From Oligoflexus sp. (GTDB taxonomy: Bacteria > Bdellovibrionota_B > Oligoflexia > Oligoflexales > Oligoflexaceae): a DNA stretch of 21,257 nt. A program made the translations under genes and the position numbers. How positions within the stretch are numbered: the stretch's first letter is position 1; the number at the start of each line of letters is the position of its first letter. Positions 556-19,717 of the stretch are shown here, piece by piece. The stretch covers positions 1-21,257 of the forward strand of contig JBGSTX010000055.1 in the NCBI GenBank assembly GCA_041736305.1. The letters run 5' to 3'. The notes under the pieces were generated by a model. It saw only the letters and a list, made by a program, of their open reading frames with translations, searched no databases and was not told the DNA's origin.

Positions 556-2196
556 TTACCGGACCTCGCTAACACAGCTGTTGGCCGGAAGATCCATTGT
601 ATAGTTTCGTCCATCGACCTGCAGGATTTGAGGCTGAGAAAACTTGCAGACTGTCTGGCTCTGCACAGGCGGTTGTTGACTTCTATCCTGGAGGCTGAGC
701 TCGAGTGCGCTACAGATTAGAGACTTTGCTTTCCCGACGACTGAAGTATCCAACGGAATATTCAGCCCAAGGGTTCCGCTGTCGGCATGCATGGATTGCC
801 CGGTAACGGCCAGCTGATAGGGATCGCAGCTTAGCTTGCCTTCGAGCACATTAACGCCGGGATTAAGATTCGCTACAGTCAGACGTAGTAAACCCTGATG
901 TGCTGAGGGCTCCTGGGCGTTTTCTTTGCGAACTGTGAGAGGGGCGGCGTCGCCTTCTATAACTGCATTTTTGACCTTCAAGCTTTTAAACGGAGCCTTC
1001 GTGAGATCCCAATAGGCCGACCCCCGCTTGATTGGAAATTTTGTTTCCGGCGTAAAGCTATAGCGAACAGCCTGCCTGGCGTTGAGGATGCTGGCGCTAT
1101 CGTAGATCGTCAGCGAGCTGCAGTTATAAGAACCCAGCTGATTTTTCATGGGGTGCTTGAGGAGGATCGATACTGAATGTCTGTAGGCTGGCGAGGGAGT
1201 ATCCTGATAGGAAAAAAAGTTGACGAGACCATCGTCCTCACGGCAGCGCAGAACACCAATCCCCGGCTTTGCGAAAGGCAAGGGGCCCAGCCGAGCGATC
1301 AACCACTGATCCACGATGACTGGCCGATAAGTAATGATCGTGGGTAGCTCTGTACAGAAACGATAAGGCCTTGCATCGAGGGAGCGAACCTGCCCTTCGG
1401 TCTGCTGAGTGCAGCAGGCACTCAGGTTTTCTGTTTGCCATCTATGACCATCGGCTCGGCAAGCCTGCTCGCGTGGAAAAATGCTTCGCTTCTCATAAAC
1501 GAAGCGCAGGGTCGCGATGTCGCCTGATGAAAGTCTTGAAGGTTGTACAAGCAGGTCGTTCCGGGTATTGGCGCAGTAATTCATAATCGAGTCTTTATCG
1601 AAAGATCCGATGCGAATGCCGCCCAAAATTTCATCACTGACACCACCCATTTGGGTCTCGTCACAGGTCGAATCAATGCGATCAGCTTCGTGACGCAGAC
1701 CGAGCGCATGGCCGAACTCATGGAGAGCCGTTGTGAGTAAACAATGCTCTCCACTGCAACTGCCGGGTGCGAGTATGCTTTGGAACGGTGCGATCTGGTA
1801 ATTAAAAAAGAGGCGGATGCCGCCGGGCATCCCGTCCAATTTCTTGCCAAAGGCCTTGACCTCCCCCAGAATACCGTTGCTCGCTAACTCTGCATCACTG
1901 GTCTCTTGAATCCAGATGCCCTGGTCCCCGGCACGACAAGCTTTCCAGCCTGTGAACTGAAATCCAGCCTGGCTAAATTCACGAGTCACAAGATCCTGAA
2001 TTTTTTGTCGCTGACTGGCAAAGCGATCGCTAAAATCCTGCCAGCAGACGGCGATTTCGCGTCGATCCCAGAGATAGGCTGAGCCTTCAACAACGTTGCC
2101 CTGGCTTTCTGAAAGCGAGGGTTCCCGGAATTTGCAGGCACTGAGGCTGAACAAGAGCATCGGATAGACCATGCGAGTCCAAAATTGAGTTGGCAT
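556..2196 (-). CDS. Secreted lipoprotein zinc metalloprotease (metzincin; M10/M12/M57-like) with C-terminal beta-rich extension
   Basis: Lipobox-like LSAC after a hydrophobic stretch; extended zinc motif HEFGHALGLRHE (about 1687-1722); Met-turn SIMNY; LSSGD helix typical of metzincins. Confidence 0.85.
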   Translation of the reverse strand: MPTQFWTRMVYPMLLFSLSACKFREPSLSESQGNVVEGSAYLWDRREIAVCWQDFSDRFASQRQKIQDLVTREFSQAGFQFTGWKACRAGDQGIWIQETSDAELASNGILGEVKAFGKKLDGMPGGIRLFFNYQIAPFQSILAPGSCSGEHCLLTTALHEFGHALGLRHEADRIDSTCDETQMGGVSDEILGGIRIGSFDKDSIMNYCANTRNDLLVQPSRLSSGDIATLRFVYEKRSIFPREQACRADGHRWQTENLSACCTQQTEGQVRSLDARPYRFCTELPTIITYRPVIVDQWLIARLGPLPFAKPGIGVLRCREDDGLVNFFSYQDTPSPAYRHSVSILLKHPMKNQLGSYNCSSLTIYDSASILNARQAVRYSFTPETKFPIKRGSAYWDLTKAPFKSLKVKNAVIEGDAAPLTVRKENAQEPSAHQGLLRLTVANLNPGVNVLEGKLSCDPYQLAVTGQSMHADSGTLGLNIPLDTSVVGKAKSLICSALELSLQDRSQQPPVQSQTVCKFSQPQILQVDGRNYTMDLPANSCVSEVR

Positions 2197-2256
2197 GAGA
2201 GTGTCCTAAGGATCTGTACAGTTAAACACGCTACTAGCTAATCTTCTGCATCACGA

Positions 2257-3054
2257 CTAATCGAGCCAAAAGCGTTGGTTATTTGAAATTCCACCAGGAC
2301 CGGCTACGAAGGGTTTGCAACGATAGAGTATGATGGGCTGGCCTGGGGACACTCCAGCGCTACCACCGCTAACGTCCATGCATTTGCCTGAGTCTTTAGC
2401 CAATTTTATATAACCATATCCACCGTTGTTGCCCTTATCCCAAAGCCATTTCTGATTGTCGTCATTGTTCTTGCAGACATCAATGACAACATAGCCGTCT
2501 CGAGCCGTTGCACAGCCCACCCGCAGCGATTTATTGGGTACCATGCGCGCGCCATTCCCATCAGCAGCCCATGCTGTATAGTAGGTATTGGTGCGGATCT
2601 GAACTTCCTCAGAGTTAGGCTGGGTGCTGACAATGGCAAATCTAGCACAATCACCCCACAGCCCATTGAGGTTTTTACCGGCGGTTGTTCCGTCTTTGGA
2701 GTAGTCCTGAAAAAACTTGCTGGACTTTATTGAGATAAGGCGCGAACCAGATAAGATGTTGGGATCCTTTCGAAAGATGTCGGCGACCACACCATTCTGT
2801 TGAGCTATGCCCGCAACCGTCCAGACCACACAGGCCCAATCATTGGGTCCTACGAGACGAATAGTCCCCTGCACAGCGTTGCCGCTTGTCGCCATAAGCG
2901 AGGCATCTTCGTCCGCAGGATGGTCGCCACCACTTTCTTTAGTCCTGCAGGATGAGCCAAAGCTGAGCATTAAGAGAGCGCAGATAGCGTTTCGCCAAAA
3001 GGCGGATCGAGCGTGAGGAGAATTCAGCTGCAAGGGCAGAAAACACTTGAACAT
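2257..3054 (-). CDS. Lipoprotein with ricin-type beta-trefoil (RICIN B lectin) domain
   Basis: Signal peptide ending GSSC; C-terminal repeats VCKNNDDNQKW and GYIKLAKDSGKCMDVSGG...LYRC...NQRF match the ricin QxW/QxF pattern; AAGGA RBS upstream. Confidence 0.8.
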   Translation of the reverse strand: MFKCFLPLQLNSPHARSAFWRNAICALLMLSFGSSCRTKESGGDHPADEDASLMATSGNAVQGTIRLVGPNDWACVVWTVAGIAQQNGVVADIFRKDPNILSGSRLISIKSSKFFQDYSKDGTTAGKNLNGLWGDCARFAIVSTQPNSEEVQIRTNTYYTAWAADGNGARMVPNKSLRVGCATARDGYVVIDVCKNNDDNQKWLWDKGNNGGYGYIKLAKDSGKCMDVSGGSAGVSPGQPIILYRCKPFVAGPGGISNNQRFWLD

Positions 3055-3232: not shown

Positions 3233-4066
3233 TTATGGATGCGTCTCAGCAATAGGACTGAGCCACAGACCCCAGACCACGCCCTCCTGCAGCCATCGCC
3301 GAACGTACTCGTGCAGATCGGCTTCAGAGCCCTGGGCTTTTTTTTCAAGCTCTATCAGAGCTAAGCCAAGGTTCATTTTTTGAAGGTTTTGATAGAAACG
3401 GGATTGGAGTTGCACCAAAGGTCTATAGACCAGTGCTGCCCCTACCCTCTGGACGAGATACGTTTGTGCGTTCAAGAGGCGATCCGGCCAGGACAGTTTT
3501 TTTGACCTATCGGCTAAGAGAGCAAGGTATAGATCGAGAAGGGGCCAGTCTTCACTTATAATCATCCAATCAGCGCAAGGCTTCAAAGTCAGCTCGAAGA
3601 GATTATCGACTGCTAAGCCCTGCGGATTCCAGGCCTGAGTGAAGGGGGCAGCGAAAACTTTTTGCCTGGCCCGATCCCAGGCTGCAGCTTGCCTTAGGCA
3701 GCCCGGAGGACCTGGCAAAGTCACTTTATCCAAAAAAGTTTCGAAGTATTCTGCAAGGTCTTGTAGCGCATAAGTGCAAGGCGGATGTTCTAGAAGATAT
3801 CTCTGGGCCAAGAGATTGAAATCCCAATGGCCCATCAGTTCAGCTGTCAACGGAAATTCTTTTTGCAAAACGTTGAACAGCCTCGTCCAGTACTGAAAAT
3901 GATAAACGCTTATTCCAGCGTTTGCTGTTTCGGGGATCATTGCGTATACAGCTTTCCAATTAGATCTTGATTTTGAGTGGAAGACACCTCCTGAGGTTTC
4001 CAGTGGCGTTCGAAGAAGCTGACCCCACTGCGCCTGGAATTCTTGCAACCACTCAGGGGATTTCAT
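3233..4066 (-). CDS. DUF2063-type (BufC/HvfC-like) MNIO partner protein
   Basis: N-terminal pattern LQEFQ...GISVYHFQYWTRLFNVLQKEFP...LMGHWDF...YLLEHPP typical of DUF2063. Overlaps the DUF692 gene end. RBS AGAGGAG (4073-4079) favours the ATG at 4066 over the track's 4072. Confidence 0.8.
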   Translation of the reverse strand: MKSPEWLQEFQAQWGQLLRTPLETSGGVFHSKSRSNWKAVYAMIPETANAGISVYHFQYWTRLFNVLQKEFPLTAELMGHWDFNLLAQRYLLEHPPCTYALQDLAEYFETFLDKVTLPGPPGCLRQAAAWDRARQKVFAAPFTQAWNPQGLAVDNLFELTLKPCADWMIISEDWPLLDLYLALLADRSKKLSWPDRLLNAQTYLVQRVGAALVYRPLVQLQSRFYQNLQKMNLGLALIELEKKAQGSEADLHEYVRRWLQEGVVWGLWLSPIAETHP

Positions 4067-4886
4067 AAACATCTCCTCTATAGAAGCGCGCTTTCTGCAG
4101 TTCGGCGAGGAGGATAGGCAAGCTAGGTATCTTGCTGTCCCATTCTAAAAGAGTTGGAAAAGGACCTCCGAGTTTCCAAGCCGAAGCATAAAGATTCCAA
4201 ACTGCTTCGGCCACAGGTCCGTCATGGGTATCAACTAATCGACCGTCGCCCTGAGAGTGATGGCCAGCGAGATGGACCTGTAAAACCCTCTCAAATGGAA
4301 TGGCGGCTAAGTACTCTTTTGCATCAAAGCCATGGTTTTGGCTCGAAACATAGATGTTGTTGATATCGAGGATCATCCCTATATCAGCTCTTTCAACTAC
4401 CGAAGAAAAAAACTCCCACTCAGTCATTTCACTTCTAGCAAAAGTCACATAGCTCGATAGATTTTCCAGGGCAAAAGGGCGACCAAGGCGCTTTTGGACA
4501 TAAGCAGCTCGCTCAGCAGCAAAGTCGAGCAAATCTCGGCTATAGGGAGTTGGAAGTAGATCATGATGGGAGAGTCCATGCGAACCGGTCCAGCAAAGAT
4601 GGTCGCTAACAAAAGGAGCGTCGACGCTATCAGCTAAGCGGCAAAGCTCCTCTAAGTATGCTTCGTTCAACGCATCTGCACCAAGTAGGTTGAGACCCAC
4701 CCCATGGAGGACCACTGGATAGCGGCTGCGGACTCGCTCTAAGTTCTCTCGAGGTGGCCAAGCAGCCCCCGTGAAATTTTCAGTGATAGCTTCAAAATAG
4801 TCGACAGCTGGCCAACTCGCAAAGAGCTCAGTATAGAACTCGGTCCGCAGACCAAGTCCCAAGGCATGGGGGTGAAGTCTTTCCAA
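4053..4886 (-). CDS. DUF692 family multinuclear non-heme iron oxidative enzyme (MNIO), bufferin-maturase-like
   Basis: GLGLR N-terminus and iron-ligand motifs LHGV, SDHL, ENL, LDINNIYVS, HLAGH, DTH and LLEWD all present; TTG start 11 nt after the upstream stop. Confidence 0.95.
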   Translation of the reverse strand: MERLHPHALGLGLRTEFYTELFASWPAVDYFEAITENFTGAAWPPRENLERVRSRYPVVLHGVGLNLLGADALNEAYLEELCRLADSVDAPFVSDHLCWTGSHGLSHHDLLPTPYSRDLLDFAAERAAYVQKRLGRPFALENLSSYVTFARSEMTEWEFFSSVVERADIGMILDINNIYVSSQNHGFDAKEYLAAIPFERVLQVHLAGHHSQGDGRLVDTHDGPVAEAVWNLYASAWKLGGPFPTLLEWDSKIPSLPILLAELQKARFYRGDVYEIP

Positions 4887-4897
4887 GATCTCTCTTC

Positions 4898-5590
4898 CTA
4901 TTCTGTCATGCCCCAGCTTTTAGCTTCTATGGGCAAAGTCTTAATGTGAGCTGCGGTTCTCTTAATTTCTGCCAGCGAATAGCTCTTGTAAAAACCAGGC
5001 ATATTCGCGAATGCCACACCATCGGCGGCTACACCGTGAATACCGAAAGCAATCTTAGCTATCAGGGCACTCTCAGGACGAGCTTGGAAAGCAGCAATGG
5101 CGGCTGTCGCATCAGTGCCAGGCGCAATGGGAAGGACAAACTTATCGGTGCCTTCTCCGTGGCAAAAGCTACACTTAATCTCCGAGCCCACCTCTTTACC
5201 ATTGTCTGAACCAGTAAGAATAGCTGCACCGCTGAGACCCTTGTCCTCTGGAAGATCAACGCAGGACATACCTGCGCAAATGTTGAGAGCTTGGCAGCTG
5301 TGCTCGCTGAGTTTCCCTGAGGAGCTGTGGTAGGAAAGTCCAGCGCATGAGTTAGAACCTGAGCAGCTTGCATGGGTCTGCAATACCCCACCACGCCCCT
5401 CACAGGTACTAGTGAAGCTTTGCAGCGTGATAGTTTTGTCGACTGAAGTGGAGCTGATTGCGGGCTTAGCCGGGGACACTTCGACAATTTTTTCTTTCTC
5501 GTTTTCTCCACATCCTCCAAGCTGCGCTCCCATGAGACCCATCAAAGCTGCTCCGAGAAGACTCGATTTTACGGGTTGTACATCGCTCAT
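4898..5590 (-). CDS. Lipoprotein with Cys-rich bufferin-like (putative MNIO substrate) domain fused to a class I c-type cytochrome domain
   Basis: Lipobox LGGC (Cys27); six-Cys region C63-C110 with two CxxxNxCAG repeats; heme motif CSFCH (residues 140-144); distal-ligand-like NMPGF (Met197) and C-terminal helix SLAEIKRTAAHI; GAGG RBS. Confidence 0.8.
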   Translation of the reverse strand: MSDVQPVKSSLLGAALMGLMGAQLGGCGENEKEKIVEVSPAKPAISSTSVDKTITLQSFTSTCEGRGGVLQTHASCSGSNSCAGLSYHSSSGKLSEHSCQALNICAGMSCVDLPEDKGLSGAAILTGSDNGKEVGSEIKCSFCHGEGTDKFVLPIAPGTDATAAIAAFQARPESALIAKIAFGIHGVAADGVAFANMPGFYKSYSLAEIKRTAAHIKTLPIEAKSWGMTE

Positions 5591-5700: not shown

Positions 5701-6102
5701 TCAATAGAACTTGGGATGAGGAACGGGAGGCTCTAGTTTGAACTCAGACTTCAAACTTTTGATAAAAAAGTCAAAAAGACGTGTCGAGGAGGGTTGGAAA
5801 CGAATCCATGCCTGCGTATCGACGTTGGGTAGAAAAAAGGCAAAAAATGTCAGGAGGTCGCACTTACAAGATGCATCTGTCTTATACTGCGGCTGCTTTG
5901 CATCTAGAGGTGGACGAGACTTTGCGGTTTGAGTCTGATGGCACGAAAAAGTCAGTTCATCAGACGTAAGAATTTGGCGCGCATCCGATACAAATGCTTC
6001 AATCGCTCGGCAACGAGGGACAGTCGACAAGGCGAACGCCATCACCAAAGCAAGCCCGAGAACGAGCTGGAGTGTCTTTGATAATGAATGAAATAGGTAC
6101 AT
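5701..6102 (-). CDS. Small membrane-anchored Cys/His protein with Pro-rich C-terminus (DUF2946/CruR-like leader protein)
   Basis: N-terminal hydrophobic helix, SCH and SCKC motifs, C-terminus EPPVPHPKFY; directly upstream of and co-oriented with the MNIO operon. Confidence 0.6.
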   Translation of the reverse strand: MYLFHSLSKTLQLVLGLALVMAFALSTVPRCRAIEAFVSDARQILTSDELTFSCHQTQTAKSRPPLDAKQPQYKTDASCKCDLLTFFAFFLPNVDTQAWIRFQPSSTRLFDFFIKSLKSEFKLEPPVPHPKFY

Positions 6103-12738: not shown

Positions 12739-14304
12739 ATGTTGAAAGAAAAATGCAAATTCATACTAAATCAAGTTCTTTTCTCGAAGAATCCCTCGTC
12801 TGAGGACGGCTCTAGCTTGATATATGTCCTGATCATCGCGGCGATCGGCTCGAGCATGGTGGCTATAAGTACAAGCCGATCGAGTAACTCGAAGAGTCAG
12901 TCAGACAAGCTTAAAGCCAATGCTTTTGTCAGAAGTAGCCTCATGGATCTTAATAGTCAGCTTAGTTGTCCAGGTGGAGCTATCCGGGTGAAAAAGGGCA
13001 GTTGCGATGCGAAGTCAAAATCCATCACGCTCTCTATCCGCGAACTCAGGCGCATAGCTATGGAAAAGACCTCGCACTCTCTCGCTACGACGGGGGGCTT
13101 GCCGGCGGCAAATAGGGGATACGATTATTTCGATCTCCTTCACATGAGAATCGTCTGTTACAAGCGAGGAAGTCACTTGGATGCGTCCGGAAAACCGATG
13201 ATGACAGATAAAAAACAGATACCTTGTACGCTGCTGGGAAACATAGACCAAACTCTAACACCGCTGGTCTCGCAGAATAGACTCAGCGGGGTTGAGGAAC
13301 GCTTCAATCAAGACGTGGCTGTGATCCTAGCTACCATTAATCCAGAAATAAATACGAAGATTGCGGATGTTGAGAAAGACATCAAAAAGCTCGAGGTGAA
13401 GAAAAAAGTGTCTGAGCATCAGCACGGCATTGCGCTAGATCGGCTGAATGTAGCAAGTAATAACCTGACAGCTAGGCAAGACGTTTATAATTCCCTATTA
13501 GGCCAATTTAATAGATCTGTGCTTGACTACAATGCCAAAGTCGCGACGTGCCCATCTCCTTGCCCCAGTGATAGTCCGCTCCTGCCTGAAATTTATGCTG
13601 CTCAAGCAAGCATGCTAGCGCTCCAAGAGCAGCTGAACCGTTCGATTGCGACCCTCAATACCGCCACTACAAATTTTAGGAATGTGCAAAGCGAGGAAAA
13701 TCTCGCTAGAAGTGAATTGCAAGGCAATATAGATGCTATTGCTACAGAGCAAAAGAGAATTAGCAGCTATCAGAATATGATTCAGTATCTCAAATCAATT
13801 AGCGATGGCAAAGACCTTATTCTAAGAAATTCTCAGCTGGCTGTTCTTCAGGCCGAGGGAGGCATACTCAAACGTCTGCTTCGTCACGGTGTAGGCGGAG
13901 CTGCTACTTCTGCGCTCTCTCGCTTGCCTAATTCGGATAATGACGGCCTGAGCAGTTCGCAGACTACTCCTGAAGATGCGGACAATATTCGTTTGGGAAT
14001 GATCGTACTTAAGCCCTTCTGTTCCGTTGATAATGGTGAACCTAGGTTGAGGTTTAGCGCCAAGGTTACCGATGTAGAAGACATCGGAGGAGGGCTTGAT
14101 TTCAAAGACAATTATTCGAAACGCCGGAATCAATTGATCAAAGTTTTGAATAATGTAGGCCTACCAGCGAAGGATGGTTGGGTAAAAATGCCGATAAACT
14201 TCACGCCATCTAATTGCACGCTTATTGAAGAGGAAGACCCACCTCTTACAGGTGCAAATAATTGGAAAATGGACGGTTTGACATCCACGAGGACCAATCC
14301 ATGA
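12739..14304 (+). CDS. Large PilX/GspK-like minor pilin with long coiled-coil insertion
   Basis: DG|SSLIYVLIIAAIG class III-like signal without Glu5; heptad-rich region about 13330-13800; AAGAGGA RBS; ATGA overlap with the next pilin gene. Confidence 0.6.
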   Translation: MLKEKCKFILNQVLFSKNPSSEDGSSLIYVLIIAAIGSSMVAISTSRSSNSKSQSDKLKANAFVRSSLMDLNSQLSCPGGAIRVKKGSCDAKSKSITLSIRELRRIAMEKTSHSLATTGGLPAANRGYDYFDLLHMRIVCYKRGSHLDASGKPMMTDKKQIPCTLLGNIDQTLTPLVSQNRLSGVEERFNQDVAVILATINPEINTKIADVEKDIKKLEVKKKVSEHQHGIALDRLNVASNNLTARQDVYNSLLGQFNRSVLDYNAKVATCPSPCPSDSPLLPEIYAAQASMLALQEQLNRSIATLNTATTNFRNVQSEENLARSELQGNIDAIATEQKRISSYQNMIQYLKSISDGKDLILRNSQLAVLQAEGGILKRLLRHGVGGAATSALSRLPNSDNDGLSSSQTTPEDADNIRLGMIVLKPFCSVDNGEPRLRFSAKVTDVEDIGGGLDFKDNYSKRRNQLIKVLNNVGLPAKDGWVKMPINFTPSNCTLIEEEDPPLTGANNWKMDGLTSTRTNP

Positions 14305-16073
14305 GTAGAAAAATAGGGAAAATTTGGAAAGCAGACTCTGCACAAACGATTCAGTCTCACGTGTTTGGGTGCTTCAAAGGCAAAGCCCAGTCCGCCTTCA
14401 GCCTCATCGAAGTGATGATCAGCCTGGGGCTACTAGGCATAACATTCGCTGGATATATGAAGTTCTCGGCGAATTCTTCGGCGGGACTTATCACTGTGTC
14501 TGAGAAAACAGATCTATTGATGCTGAGAAAGTTTATTACTACGCAGTTCAGCTGCGAAAAAACTTTGGCAGCGAGCTCGAAACGTGAAGGAGGGCGACTG
14601 ACTTATGTCAATTGTCCTGCCGGCATTGCGGGTCGAAGCATCGATATATATAGTAAAGATAGAGATGGCAAGATTATGTTTGCCAAAGATGGCTCTCTGT
14701 TTGGCGTTTATAAGGACAGTCTTGGCAAGGACCAGGGGGGCTACAAAGTTGTTGGAGTGTGCGATGGTAACGGATCGGTTCCTGATGTTGGAAGTCCGGT
14801 AAAAGTCCCTTCTTTTCGCTTCTTTGCTTCAAAAGCAGACAATCCATTTCCTTTACAAATCAACAGCGTATTGAAGTTTTCTCCCGGTTGGTCGGATTTG
14901 TTGGATGGGGGTGAAATAGAGTGCGCACTTCCGGATGATCCAGGTCTGCCTGTGGATACCAAGTGCACAGCCATGTTCGTTTCTCGACCGGGTGGAGTTC
15001 CCACGGAAGAAGTACCTGGCCCTTACTTCCGCTCGAACGGAGACCCGTGGATTACTGGGGGCCACGGTGCTAGTCTCGTCATCCGTGCTTACCGTGAACA
15101 AGATCTTGCAATTAGCTCCACTGAGGGCCGGCCTACCACTTGGCGAATGAAGTGGATGAACAAGAACCCCGACGACACGATAGGTGACCCAGTGTATGGA
15201 AGGTTGGTTGAGGATGGGTTCGCAACCCCTGTAGCCTCTCCTAGCTTTCTCGTTCCTGCAAACCTAACTCTCATGAATCCTAGCCAGCCAATGAGCAATT
15301 GCACACAGGGTGGAGTTATAACTACTGCCGCTCCTGCTTACAACCAGGTCCCTGCCTGCAGCTTCTGGGAGCAAAAGGTAGAATTCAATCAAATGTCCAA
15401 TCCTCCTGACTGGTACGCAGCGCCTCTTGATTTGATTATCGAAGGGCTCGATTCATCGCAGAATGTTCTGACCTCTTGTTCCACCAAAATGCAGTTGATA
15501 AGTCCCCTCGTTCTCACCTGGCCGCGAAATGCGGATACGCCAGAGGACCTTGATTTTCATCCTACAACTACAAAGTTCGACATCGCGGCCTCGGGAAAAA
15601 GGGTTAATTCTGGCTGGATCGGCGGCTTCTCTGCATTCTTAGTGCTCGATCGAAATAGAAATGGACGAATAGATAACGGTTCGGAACTTTTCGGAGATGC
15701 CACTGCGATTGGGAGATCTACTGCTTCGAAAGCAGCGCGGCACCCTCATGGTTTCGCAGCGCTAGCCGAATTTGACGATAATCAGGACATGTTTATCGAC
15801 CAGCAAGACGAGGTGTATACGAATCTTCGACTCTGGTTTGACGAGGATTCGGATGGTGAAAGTCAGCCTTGGGAGCTCCATGGTCTGAAAGATTTTGAAG
15901 TCAAGAAAATCGCACTGCGTTTTAAGCCCGTGGACAAACAACCCAAAGAAGCTAACATGCTGACCAAATTCGCCTATGAATCATCTTTTTATGGCCCGGA
16001 GATTTGTGGTCCGGCAGGGTGTCGCATTTATGATATATACTTTACAATGGCCCATCCTAGGGATGCGGAATAA
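14301..16073 (+). CDS. Type IV pilin-like protein with C-terminal FrpC-type Ca-binding self-processing (SPM/MIIA-like) module
   Basis: QSA|FSLIEVMISLGLLG prepilin motif; C-terminal SPLVL...FDI...GW...FLVLDRNRNGRIDNGSELFGD...GFAALAEFDDNQDMFIDQQDEVYTNLRLWFDEDSDGESQPWELHGL. Start placed at ATG 14301 (GAGGA RBS, ATGA overlap) rather than 14262. Confidence 0.8.
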   Translation: MSRKIGKIWKADSAQTIQSHVFGCFKGKAQSAFSLIEVMISLGLLGITFAGYMKFSANSSAGLITVSEKTDLLMLRKFITTQFSCEKTLAASSKREGGRLTYVNCPAGIAGRSIDIYSKDRDGKIMFAKDGSLFGVYKDSLGKDQGGYKVVGVCDGNGSVPDVGSPVKVPSFRFFASKADNPFPLQINSVLKFSPGWSDLLDGGEIECALPDDPGLPVDTKCTAMFVSRPGGVPTEEVPGPYFRSNGDPWITGGHGASLVIRAYREQDLAISSTEGRPTTWRMKWMNKNPDDTIGDPVYGRLVEDGFATPVASPSFLVPANLTLMNPSQPMSNCTQGGVITTAAPAYNQVPACSFWEQKVEFNQMSNPPDWYAAPLDLIIEGLDSSQNVLTSCSTKMQLISPLVLTWPRNADTPEDLDFHPTTTKFDIAASGKRVNSGWIGGFSAFLVLDRNRNGRIDNGSELFGDATAIGRSTASKAARHPHGFAALAEFDDNQDMFIDQQDEVYTNLRLWFDEDSDGESQPWELHGLKDFEVKKIALRFKPVDKQPKEANMLTKFAYESSFYGPEICGPAGCRIYDIYFTMAHPRDAE

Positions 16074-16098
16074 TTCGATCGTTCTGGGAGCTTCTTGA

Positions 16099-16647
16099 AT
16101 GAACCGTCAAGTGCAGGTTGATCATAAGGAAAGTGGAATGACCCTCGTCGAGGTGATGATTGCAGCTGCGCTTTTCGGTATTTTGGTACTCTTTGGAGGA
16201 CGAGCTGCTTATCTTCTCCATTATCAAAGTAAAGCCGTAGAGGTTAACCATACTCTCAACAACGCCAAAGCCGAAATGCTTATGCTTACCGACTGCAATA
16301 CCTCAGTTTCTCTCCGAGGGGGACGCCCAGTTCGCGCCTGTGACTTCGATCCTAAAGTCACCTGTCCAAGTTCGAACTACATGACAATTATGAGTAAAAG
16401 AGCCGGTGGTTCTGGTGCTCGCAGGCAATTGATAAGAACCTGGACTGCGCCTCCGACGGGAAAGAACAAGTCGACTACCTCGACCTATGGCAGCTCTCTC
16501 GATCTCCGTGCAAGGTGCGGCTGCTGCCCGGAGTGTGTGGATGGGAAAGGTGTCTTTCTCGAGTATAAGAAAATAAGCCCTCCCGGTCCGGCCTACGAAT
16601 ATAAGCCTATGTTCAATGGATTGCCGATAGATTGTGTAGTGAACTAG
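16099..16647 (+). CDS. Prepilin-type N-terminal cleavage/methylation domain protein (minor pilin)
   Basis: ESG|MTLVEVMIAAALFG with Glu5; Cys-rich head; GGAG RBS. Confidence 0.85.
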   Translation: MNRQVQVDHKESGMTLVEVMIAAALFGILVLFGGRAAYLLHYQSKAVEVNHTLNNAKAEMLMLTDCNTSVSLRGGRPVRACDFDPKVTCPSSNYMTIMSKRAGGSGARRQLIRTWTAPPTGKNKSTTSTYGSSLDLRARCGCCPECVDGKGVFLEYKKISPPGPAYEYKPMFNGLPIDCVVN

Positions 16648-17268: not shown

Positions 17269-17521
17269 TGATTGTGAGAAACCTAATGTATTTACAAAAT
17301 GGCCTCCTTTACGATGCTTTAGTCTGCTCTCTACCGCTGGTTTGCCTAGTAATAGGACAGCTGCTTGGGCTGCCGGACTTGGTTCAAAAACGAAGTTTTT
17401 GGAATCCAGAGACGCTCATGAGGATCGATGAGTTAGACCTGGAGTTGATGGCTCATCAATCTATATCCGAGCAGATGACTTTCAACGACTGATCACAAAC
17501 TAAAATTTTTTGAGGAAAGTC

Positions 17522-19717
17522 TTGCCAAAACTCATACTCGCCTCAAATCGTCTCCCTGTTTCCATACGGAAAAATGATGATGAATTTATCGTTCAGCAAA
17601 GCCCCGGAGGTCTAGCAACCGGACTTTCTAGCCTTATTGAAGAAGACGACGTTATCTGGGTTGGCTGGCATGGCTATCAAGAAGCCCTTGATCCTCAGAC
17701 ACATGCAGCATTAATTCAGAGATTAGAGGCCATGAAGCTCTGCCCGATAGATCTCGATCCAAACGAGGTCACGGCCTACTATAATGAAGTTTCAAATGGG
17801 ACTTTCTGGCCCCTCTATCACTACCAGATTGAGCGAATGGCTTTGGAACTTAGGGGCTGGGAAACCTATCGCATAGTCAATATGCGCTTTGCTGAGCGCA
17901 TCGCAGCGCTCTATCAAGCTGGCGATTGCATATGGGTTCACGACTACCACCTACAACTTTTACCGGGACTGCTCCGAGACCTGCTTCCAGATGCGAGGAT
18001 TGGATTCTTCCTCCACATACCCTTCCCTTCGTCGGAAATCTTTCGCATTCTTCCTTGGCGCCAGGAAATATTGGATTGCCTGCTTGGAGCCGACCTCATT
18101 GGATTTCACATACACTCTTATGCTCGTCACTTTGCTAGCTCACTGCTGCGAGTCCTCGGAGTTGAAGCTTATGGTGACAAGATTCTATACAAGGGCCGCA
18201 ATATTCGGATTGGTGCCTTCCCACTTGGTGTAAACACGCAATCCATAGTCGATAAATCCGATGTATCAGATTGCGATATAGCTCTTGCCATTCGAGGGAT
18301 GCGTGAAGGCGGCAAAATTGAACACATTATGCTCGCGATCGATCGCTTAGATTACACCAAGGGCTTACCTCAGCGATTGCTCGCCGTAGAAAGACTCTTG
18401 GACGAAAAGCCGAGTCTAAGAGGAAAAATCGTCTATGTGCAGATAGCGGCTCCCTCCCGGGATGAAGTGCCGGCCTACAAGAAATATCGCCGAAAAGTAG
18501 ATGAACTGATCGGTAGGATCAACGGCAAGTATGGAATGCCAGACTATCAACCCATTCATTACATATCGCGAGGTTTTTCGCAGGAAGAAGTCCTTGCACT
18601 CTATCGTTATGTGGATGTGATGCTGGTAACTCCTCTTCGCGATGGGATGAATCTCGTAGCCAAGGAGTTTATTGCGGCTCGATCAGATGACGACGGGGTG
18701 CTAGTGCTGAGCGAATTTGCAGGAGCAGCTGCCGAGCTCGGGGAAGCCGTCCTCGTCAATCCGTATGACATCGATGGAATGGCCAGTGGCTTTGTCCAGG
18801 CCATAGAAATGAGTCTCGAAGAACGGAGTTCAAGGATGAAAGCCCTTCGCAGTCGGATCGCTCTCTTTGATGCAGCTGGTTGGGCCAAGCGCTTTGTCGA
18901 TCGAATCGGATCTTCATCTGCAGAGGGCACACGGGTCCAAGGGTTCACCCGCCCATCCAATCTATTCGAAATGCTACCTACGCAAAAGATACTGCTGTTT
19001 TTGGATTATGACGGGACCCTTTTCCCTATCGTGCGGATTCCGAGTCTGGCTCGTCCCGATTTACCTCTCCTGACTCTTTTGCGAAGGCTGGGCGAAAATC
19101 CTCGAGTTGAAGTCCATATTGTTAGTAGCCGCTCTCGGGAGTCTCTCGATAAGTGGTTTACAGGAATGAATATTCACCTTCATTCTGAACATGGTGCAAT
19201 GAGTCGCGGTCCTCAGTCAGGTGAGTGGGTTGAACAGGTCTCTGTCTCGCAGTCCGCAGGTTGGAAGCCCCATGTGCGGTCTGTGCTCAAGGACTTTGCA
19301 AAGAATACACCAGGCTCATTTATCGAAGAAAAGGAAGTCTCCCTCGCCTGGCACTATAGGATGGCGGATCCAGAGCAAGGTCAACGTATGGCGAGTGAGC
19401 TTCGTTTGCATGGACGCGAGACTTTTGCGCCTATGGGTCTCGAAGTCATACAGGACAAATATGTACTAGAGGTGCGACAGTCAGGGATTAATAAGGGCAT
19501 AGTCGTGAGAAGAATTAGGGAACAGCAGGCTGAGCCCGTGTTTTCAGTAGCAATCGGTGATGATTCTACCGATGAAGACATGTTCGTCGAGGCAGGTGAG
19601 AATGGGCTTACAATAGTCGTAGGCGATCATGCTACTAAAGCTGCTTATAGGGTGCGCGATTCGTCCGAGGTTCGTATCTTTCTCGAGCTGCTCGCTTCAC
19701 CAAGGTGGTCCAACTGA
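17522..19717 (+). CDS. otsAB: Bifunctional trehalose-6-phosphate synthase/phosphatase (GT20 plus HAD fusion)
   Basis: [60 protein letters not shown] motifs [27 protein letters not shown] at 17512-17516 favours the TTG at 17522. Confidence 0.95.

Follow-up and report, generated by a model that had tools for sequence, protein, structure and literature searches.

The window analysed here, meaning the whole 21,257-nucleotide (nt) stretch, is a contig of a 5.0-Mb, 92.7%-complete genome whose close protein homologues are named Oligoflexus. Within 3233-5590 of its minus strand, the listing of open reading frames (ORFs) gives three genes, here A, B and C, which sequence comparison supports as a bufferin-type MNIO/DUF2063 cluster of the buf2 type, without DoxX. 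Gene A, in the precursor position, encodes a predicted lipoprotein in which a six-Cys domain distantly related to bufferin 2 is joined to what appears to be a monohaem cytochrome c. As judged from sequence, the identity of this fusion as a real, conserved and MNIO-linked protein is well supported. We put at roughly 60% the probability that its product is a lipid-anchored, redox-coupled copper-binding module, made by a buf2-type operon from a full-size lipoprotein precursor.

4898..5590, minus strand: gene A, precursor-position lipoprotein with a Buf2-like six-Cys domain and a monohaem cytochrome c (ORF of 230 amino acids, aa)
4053..4886, minus strand: gene B, MNIO (DUF692) of the BufB type (277 aa, TTG start)
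3233..4072, minus strand: gene C, DUF2063 partner protein (279 aa from the first ATG; likely start ATG 4066)

The operon and its fused precursor

The genes are tightly packed. Gene A, which has a GAGGA about 10 nt 5' of its ATG, ends in a TAG stop at 4898-4900, and a purine-rich gap of 11 nt separates it from the TTG of gene B at 4886. The TGA stop of gene B (4053-4055) falls inside the start of gene C, for which there are two start candidates, ATG 4072 with a 20-nt B/C overlap and ATG 4066 with a 14-nt overlap; the latter is more likely because it lies 6 nt after AGAGGAG. The first-pass annotation had described just such a sequence of lipoprotein, DUF692 and DUF2063 genes, with an 11-nt gap and then an overlap, and the ORFs and the Pfam and NCBIfam assignments agree with it. 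A scan for promoters and terminators gave counts not above those in shuffled sequence. Downstream of the operon the next gene is for a ricin-lectin lipoprotein, and no DoxX gene follows. The idea that the operon has lost a needed DoxX was rejected, as the three-gene Caulobacter buf2 operon also has no doxX (bufD), and DoxX is dispensable for Buf1 (PMC11626156).

Both enzyme genes were assigned by family models. Gene B matches PF05114 at E 7.5e-95 in Pfam and passes the NCBIfam equivalog model NF050167 (MNIO_BufB) with 312.7 bits at a cut-off of 310, while its scores on the HvfB, ApyH, MbnB and ChrH models are far lower relative to their cut-offs. The MNIOs of five related loci reach 260-309 bits on NF050167, slightly below the cut-off. 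Gene C matches PF09836 (DUF2063) over residues 48-114 (48.7 bits, cut-off 27.2, E 9.4e-13), and at 277-279 aa its product is of a length that suits a two-domain DUF2063 partner. Pfam and NCBIfam gave no family match in its C-terminal half, where a domain of the RiPP recognition element type (RiPP: ribosomally synthesised and post-translationally modified peptide) is expected of bufferin partners. Prediction of a complex between the DUF2063 protein and precursor residues 28-120 gave a score of 0.02 and a mark of 0.32, which counts neither for nor against an interaction.

The product of gene A divides as follows.

5510..5590, minus strand: signal peptide with lipobox LGGC, residues 1-27, with Cys27 predicted to be lipidated (sequence inspection)
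5252..5443, minus strand: six-Cys bufferin-like domain, residues 50-113 (C63, C76, C82, C99, C105, C110)
4916..5236, minus strand: putative class I cytochrome c domain, residues 119-225 (PF00034, AlphaFold2 model, VIA-align)
5159..5173, minus strand: predicted haem c attachment motif CSFCH (C140, C143, H144), residues 140-144, invariant in 41/41 sequences
5000..5002, minus strand: M197 in NMPGF (residues 196-200), likely distal haem ligand

All the motifs that the first-pass annotation had listed for gene A, from the lipobox and the six-Cys segment with its two CxxxNxCAG repeats to CSFCH and NMPGF, are present in the sequence. These features are more than chance, because all nine Cys, H144 and M197 are invariant among 20 homologues. 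A wider alignment of 41 sequences keeps C63, C76, C99, C105, C110, C140, C143 and H144 without exception, and it keeps C27, C82 and M197 in at least 90%. The LGGC at residues 24-27 follows a hydrophobic stretch, and inspection of the family alignment finds small residues and then Cys at this place throughout. Thus, gene A is predicted to specify a lipoprotein with an N-terminal Sec-type signal peptide.

The six-Cys domain contains the repeats CSGSNSCAG (76-84) and CQALNICAG (99-107), and its six Cys are invariant in all 37 domain sequences that were picked from the window and 54 segments found by their Cys-spacing pattern. Residues 61-90 give the sole family match in this part of the protein, to BufA2 (NF050166; 13.5 bits, E 0.063), which does not reach the cut-off of 60. 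The same model matches the six-Cys region in 13/13 relatives scanned, always below the cut-off (10.8-23.5 bits, best E 4.7e-5); some of these relatives also have unrelated weak matches elsewhere. For a more sensitive comparison, BufA2-type genes were collected from 131 genomes of the same phylum, of which 61 had a match and 8 a match over the cut-off. From these, 21 ORFs were extracted and 19 aligned after two near-duplicates were dropped; eight of the 19 score over the cut-off and the rest 44-60 bits. Alignment of the 37 six-Cys domains with the 19 BufA2-type proteins by hhalign gave a probability of 92.8% (E 4e-7) over 33 columns.

The register of this alignment places C76/C82 on CysI/II and C99/C105 on CysIV/V of BufA2, so that the four Cys named in the first-pass annotation as candidate targets of modification fall on the two CxGxNxC repeats of BufA2. 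A His two residues before the second repeat is also common to both. The two Cys outside the repeats are placed differently, one lying after the first repeat and the other in the C-terminal helix in BufA2-type proteins, whereas in gene A C63 is in a predicted N-terminal helix and C110 is five residues past the second repeat. By sequence, then, the domain is not a BufA2 equivalog but is distantly related to BufA2 and has a topology of its own. Predicted alone, it has a predicted local distance difference test score (pLDDT) of 71.1, and its model resembles no fold that VIA-align could recognise (best Z 3.4, to unrelated proteins). A search of PDB sequences with the six-Cys profile gave no matches at E <= 1, and residues 40-118 had no usable match in the ESM Atlas.

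For the C-terminal part, sequence and model comparisons support a class I monohaem cytochrome c. Gene A matches PF00034 over residues 129-219 (22.2 bits, cut-off 21.3), and among relatives there are matches to ccoP and cytochrome c6 models, with E values of 5e-8 to 6e-7. A precomputed PF00034 match is found in only 2/31 homologue clusters. The AlphaFold2 model made from the 41-sequence alignment has a mean pLDDT of 82.3 and a predicted template modelling score of 0.74; local values lie at 93-98 through most of the cytochrome part but drop to 59-73 in the two Cys-repeat loops. A wide VIA-align search with this model found its best match in 7o38_A (Z 7.6, root-mean-square deviation 2.6, 72 aligned residues), and 49 of the 50 rows listed are, by entry title, c-type cytochromes or cytochrome c subunits, aligned at residues ~117-221. 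By analogy with class I cytochromes c, M197 is the likely distal haem ligand. The central claim of the first-pass annotation, that the precursor-position gene fuses a bufferin-like Cys domain to a cytochrome c, is supported.

The genome also has genes for haem attachment: CcmE (95 bits) and three genes of the CcmC/CcmF type (PF01578) are present, and no ResB was found in the 92.7%-complete assembly. Because of these Ccm genes, System I haem attachment should be available to the gene A product, in which covalent haem itself is a prediction. The attachment motif varies within the family: some Myxococcota fusions have CxxxCH in place of CxxCH (L011, L018, L020, L021 and L023; P0056, P0088 and P0120), and in P0138 the spacing is longer still.

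Conservation, linkage to MNIO genes and genomic context

A homologue search of 5.8 billion proteins gave 31 clusters; the 30 besides gene A's own are 45-78% identical to it and nearly all equal to it in length. In a further scan, with one genome per species, 59 loci were found and their architecture was called by tblastn and ORF reading. The fusion is present in 27 of these (L001-L027), which belong to Oligoflexia and Myxococcota; its carriers are Oligoflexus, Pseudobacteriovorax, Silvanigrellales, Cystobacter fuscus, three Sorangium genomes, Polyangiaceae and other metagenome-assembled genomes (MAGs) of Myxococcota. The possibility that the fusion is an artefact of gene calling or assembly was rejected, since it recurs in these 27 loci, complete genomes among them.

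The association of the fusion with DUF692, proposed from the single operon, extends to the family, the homologues lying mostly beside and not away from such genes. An MNIO gene is directly downstream on the same strand, within ~130 nt, in 24/27 fusion loci, and in 23 of those 24 DUF2063 comes after the MNIO or is fused to it. If any arrangement is allowed, 26/27 fusion loci have an MNIO. In L027 the fusion and the MNIO are separated by a further six-Cys gene, of the stand-alone kind, and in L015 the MNIO/DUF2063 pair is 3.3 kb upstream of the fusion. L010, one of the 24, is cut off by the contig end. No MNIO is seen on the 4.4-kb contig of L026, where the cytochrome part has diverged.

Several variants of the arrangement were seen. 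The MNIO of Cystobacter fuscus strain NCWS (L011:6687-7489, also one of the 24) is split between two reading frames, apparently by a frameshift or an error of sequencing, and that of strain Cbf 10 (L020) is intact. A single ORF (551-643 aa) for MNIO and DUF2063 lies downstream of the precursor in L012, L018, L021 and L025. In the Sorangium fusions (L017, L019 and L022), an extra Asp-rich N-terminal region of ~130 aa separates the lipobox from the six-Cys domain; it has a weak match to a calcium-binding XopAW-type model (E 1.8e-5, L017 residues 134-193).

In the remaining 32 loci (L028-L059), almost all from Myxococcota, the six-Cys domain stands alone, mostly in lipoproteins; MNIO/DUF2063 genes accompany it in 22 of the 32, usually in convergent orientation. 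Three of these loci (L030, L039 and L040) have three stand-alone six-Cys lipoprotein genes in tandem, convergent to MNIO/DUF2063, and there are single proteins with up to five six-Cys domains (595 aa; P0158, P0033). When 1.84 billion representatives were searched exhaustively with a profile, 221 proteins matched at E <= 0.001, 173 of them at E <= 1e-10. The six-Cys spacing fits 139 of the best 150 of these 221. A tail of at least 80 aa follows the domain in 65 of the best 150, and because 63 of those 65 tails contain CX2-4CH, this modest-sized family has, by that motif, the cytochrome fusion as one of its two main architectures.

The MNIOs beside the gene A family form a clade of their own, apart from the canonical BufA2-adjacent ones. 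A quick tree was made from 71 MNIO segments: 26 from beside fusions (the window included), 22 from beside stand-alone domains and 23 from beside BufA2-type genes. The canonical 23 are from the window's phylum only and include the two other MNIOs of its own genome (C38 and C137). Left out were three duplicate loci of the own genome, a segment containing a stop (L087) and those in which under 220 query residues were covered. The branch separating the 48 family-adjacent from the 23 BufA2-adjacent MNIOs has a support of 100 in the Shimodaira-Hasegawa-like approximate likelihood ratio test; inner supports are 81-92, and two fusion rows have long branches. Within the 48, the MNIOs associated with stand-alone domains are nested among those associated with fusions. 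With the canonical set as outgroup, this hints at an ancestral fusion, from which the stand-alone six-Cys lipoproteins of Myxococcota would have come when the cytochrome domain was lost; the order of events is a lead only. What this analysis shows directly is how the genes are ordered, which domains they encode, how far these are conserved, their synteny, a clade of dedicated MNIOs and that Ccm genes are present.

The fusion operon is an addition to, not a replacement of, other MNIO loci, because its own genome keeps two others, both with small BufA2-type precursors (29-44 bits), to make three in all. One of these (C38:5408-7468) has MNIO and DUF2063 fused in a 565-aa ORF, and the other (C137:881-4301) has two precursor-like genes. 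A further BufA2-like gene lies at C96:1326-1691; the ORFs listed there, over 4 kb, include no MNIO.

The neighbours of the operon were compared all against all in 27 loci (the window, L001-L025 and L027). A histidine kinase is near the operon in nine and a REC-Fis regulator in eight; for the two pairs scanned, the best NCBIfam models are ActS/PrrB/RegB and ActR/PrrA/RegA, below their cut-offs. A YtkA/FixH-like protein is encoded in 6/27 loci, confirmed by Pfam in two of the four scanned, plus one more in L009. In a Silvanigrellales MAG (L006:8917-12291), genes for MbnP and an MbnH-like di-haem cytochrome c peroxidase are found just downstream of the fusion operon; MbnP/MbnH-like genes are copper-acquisition genes known from methanobactin-type loci. 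In L013, Rieske and cytochrome b genes lie 1.4-4.4 kb upstream. Where they occur, such copper- or respiration-related neighbours count in favour of the redox-coupled copper reading. The window's own genome has Sco.

One gene next to the operon in the window may belong to the same system.

5701..6102, minus strand: possible accessory gene for a 133-aa membrane-anchored protein, 110 nt upstream of the operon

Its product has a hydrophobic segment at the N terminus and the invariant motifs IPRC, SCH and CxC, and it gave no match in Pfam or NCBIfam. The gene is beside the operon in 7/27 loci, in Oligoflexales only, and is on the opposite strand in L007. It could encode a metal-binding accessory protein, with uncertain membership of the system. 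Other neighbours in the window are unrelated (556-3054 on the minus strand, 14262-16647 and 17510-19717 on the plus strand): a 546-aa zinc-metalloprotease-like lipoprotein, a ricin-lectin lipoprotein, two proteins with type IV pilin-like N-methylation motifs and a fused trehalose-6-phosphate synthase/phosphatase.

Proposed maturation and a possible copper-haem function

The proposed route from gene A to a functional protein is drawn by analogy with characterised systems, and the same applies to each of its outcomes: the modification, the haem, copper binding, the identity of the metal, the direction of electron flow and the function. The MNIO and its DUF2063 partner would act in the cytoplasm and convert C76, C82, C99 and C105 to 5-thiooxazoles, by analogy with Caulobacter BufA1 and BufA2. 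The still-unfolded chain would then be exported by Sec, Cys27 would be lipidated and the signal peptide cleaved by the lipoprotein pathway, as for DybA, and C63 and C110 would form a disulfide. The Ccm System I would attach haem to C140 and C143, with H144 and M197 as axial ligands. The result would be a periplasmic protein tethered to the membrane, with a thiooxazole copper site beside a His/Met haem c. Most likely, copper binding would then be coupled to one-electron transfer, either the reduction of bound Cu(II) to Cu(I) or the oxidation of Cu(I), with electrons of the respiratory chain, and would serve copper buffering or hand-over to cuproenzymes.

The maturation logic is the best-supported part of this scheme. 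Apocytochromes c are exported unfolded and receive their haem in the periplasm, and, since BufA1 and DybA are both modified in the cytoplasm before export or lipidation, the four maturation steps should be compatible in this order. BufA1 does not need its signal peptide for modification and is exported by Sec (PMC11626156), and DybA combines cytoplasmic MNIO modification with subsequent Lgt/LspA/Lnt lipidation on one chain (PNAS 2026, PMC13056109). The chemistry assumed for the repeats has a parallel in Caulobacter Buf2, whose mass shift of -18 Da (PMC11626156) may be read as four thiooxazoles and one disulfide. For the role of the haem, redox coupling to the bound copper is favoured: Buf1 binds both Cu2+ and Cu+ (PMC11626156), and a related thiooxazole peptide binds Cu(I), up to four per peptide (PMC13097082). 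Next to a site of this kind, a His/Met haem could reduce or oxidise the metal. The Cu(I)/Cu(II) redox or sensing role that the first-pass annotation suggested for the fusion is likewise an inference. A more specific version of the redox scheme, which we offer only tentatively, is that the haem acts as an in-cis electron wire to the MNIO-made thiooxazole copper site. As a cupric reductase or Cu(I) oxidase in the periplasm, the protein would then gate the hand-over of copper to cuproenzymes.

A number of results weigh against a redox-coupled copper module. The gene A precursor fails the BufA2 equivalog model (13.5 bits where 60 are required), and the unusual placement of its two non-repeat Cys means that its modification pattern could differ from that of BufA2. 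Its cytochrome part passes the PF00034 cut-off only marginally. Foldseek of the full gene A model against the PDB found no match at E <= 0.001 (its top row, alternative complex III (ACIII) subunit E, has E 0.14). VIA Z is below 8 throughout, so that the match to the cytochrome c fold is consistent but not decisive. Family scans of the window's proteins found no recognisable copper gene in the window, and copper or respiration neighbours occur in a minority of loci, partly from near-identical genomes (L014/L024 and L011/L020). Neither a full-length RegA-like regulator nor PCuAC was found in the own genome, at its 92.7% completeness. The MNIO tree is a quick version, with a canonical set from one phylum.

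Three other explanations can be set against the redox-coupled copper module. The gene A product could be mainly a membrane-anchored respiratory electron carrier, like ActE or cytochrome cy, whose bufferin-like domain only metallates or protects a partner oxidase. The top Foldseek row and rows 6, 20 and 41 of the VIA-align search, all ACIII subunit E, point this way, as do the structural matches of gene A to CcoP and caa3 cytochrome domains, the ccoP match of the L009 homologue (E 5.4e-8) and the respiratory genes upstream in L013. However, the structural matches are all weak, respiratory neighbours are found in only one of ten loci scanned, and the fusion gene is tied to MNIO/DUF2063 and not to oxidase or bc operons, directly in 24/27 loci and within the locus in 26/27. 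We therefore consider this explanation unlikely.

It is more improbable still that the six-Cys domain is not an MNIO substrate at all and instead forms three disulfides or binds metal through plain thiolates, leaving the MNIO to act on another product such as the protein encoded at 5701-6102. That gene A scores below the cut-off for BufA2 proper and that the upstream protein has invariant Cys/His motifs would fit, but the upstream gene is present in only 7/27 loci whereas the fusion-MNIO-DUF2063 order is kept in 24. Moreover, the four repeat Cys align with the BufA2 repeats, the MNIO clade follows the gene A precursor family, and even the stand-alone six-Cys copies are beside MNIO/DUF2063 in 22/32 loci. 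The remaining explanation retains the modification and changes the purpose: the metal might be mercury, gold, silver or iron, as MerC-bufferin fusions would suggest (PMC12452194), or the protein might sense redox state or metal in the periplasm and feed into a RegB/RegA-like two-component system, for which pairs within 4 kb of the operon in 8-9/27 loci would be candidates. This we regard as a long shot, given that the characterised thiooxazole peptides cited here all bind copper (PMC11626156, PMC13097082), that the two-component pair is absent from most loci and that its regulator has no full-length counterpart among the genes found in the window's own genome.

If the redox-coupled copper module is correct, a RiPP-type heterocycle metal centre and a covalent haem would share one lipid-anchored chain, a protein of which we found no description, and MNIOs would modify multi-domain proteins whose maturation then continues through three more systems (Sec, the lipoprotein pathway and Ccm). 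Bufferins rank with the largest MNIO-made RiPP families and have so far been understood only as passive copper buffers. A conserved clade with 221 representatives at 50% identity, about four in ten of the best 150 of which are fused to cytochrome c, suggests that some bufferins use redox chemistry beyond chelation. The fusion is carried by cultivable organisms, Oligoflexus tunisiensis, Cystobacter fuscus and Sorangium, so that the idea is directly testable.

Relation to known systems

The first-pass annotation did not recognise the architecture as described, a point that is not supported as stated: Buf1/Cytochrom_C fusions, lipoprotein Buf2 and lipidated MNIO RiPPs are all in print (PMC12452194, PMC13056109). 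Antoine et al. 2025 give a length of 51-367 residues for Buf2 precursors and lipoprotein signal peptides for ~16% of Buf2 bufferins (PMC12452194), and the same paper lists fusions of the types Buf1/Cytochrom_C and Buf1/Cytochrom_C/FGE-sulfatase (Fig. 3j legend), as well as MerC/Buf1 and MerC/Buf2. In the portion of the paper that deals with these fusions, no role is proposed for the cytochrome domain and MerC/Buf2 is the sole Buf2 fusion named in the text (PMC12452194). Counted from its first ATG, the L017 fusion ORF of Sorangium has 367 aa, which equals the upper Buf2 length in that paper; therefore, the gene A family may already be inside its Buf2 set, with the weak cytochrome domain unnoticed. 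A Buf2-like cytochrome c lipoprotein was not found described in the full-text literature searched, a body of work with most subscription journals outside its scope.

The closest operon for comparison is buf2ABC of Caulobacter vibrioides (Leprevost et al. 2024, PMC11626156), which has in common the order precursor-MNIO-DUF2063, a BufB-type MNIO and the lack of doxX. Like bufferin 2 (BufA2/BUF_6/12Cys), gene A has six conserved Cys, a signal peptide, two repeats of the CxGxNxCxG type and a His before the second. It differs in having a lipobox in place of the signal peptidase I site, in the extra Cys elsewhere (in the N-terminal helix and five residues after the second repeat), in the separate MNIO clade and in the ~110-aa cytochrome c domain added after the six-Cys domain.

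The Buf1/Cytochrom_C fusions likewise place bufferin and PF00034 domains on one exported chain, and both they and the gene A family are known from genome mining. From their descriptions they are built on the four-Cys DUF2282, in contrast to gene A, which is Buf2-like, has six Cys and is a predicted lipoprotein (PMC12452194). Lipidation has its parallel in DybA and the chryseobasin-like RiPPs, where MNIO modification, Sec export and lipidation of the lipobox Cys occur on one chain, as is proposed for gene A; the DybA system differs in its MNIO subfamily (ChrH/DybH) and chemistry, and its product is a small peptide with no haem (PMC13056109). Lipidated bufferins are also predicted in that paper, although its mining window of 50-160 aa would miss the 230-aa gene A (PMC13056109). 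On the cytochrome side, the likeness is to lipid-anchored monohaem class I cytochromes c such as ACIII ActE (8k9e_E), which have an N-terminal lipoprotein anchor, a flexible linker and a single CxxCH His/Met haem domain; ActE has no MNIO-associated Cys domain, and its structural likeness to gene A is weak (Foldseek E 0.14; VIA Z 6.6). The fusion operon is a conserved, little-studied variant of a known copper-handling system, and the idea of such a fusion is partly in print.

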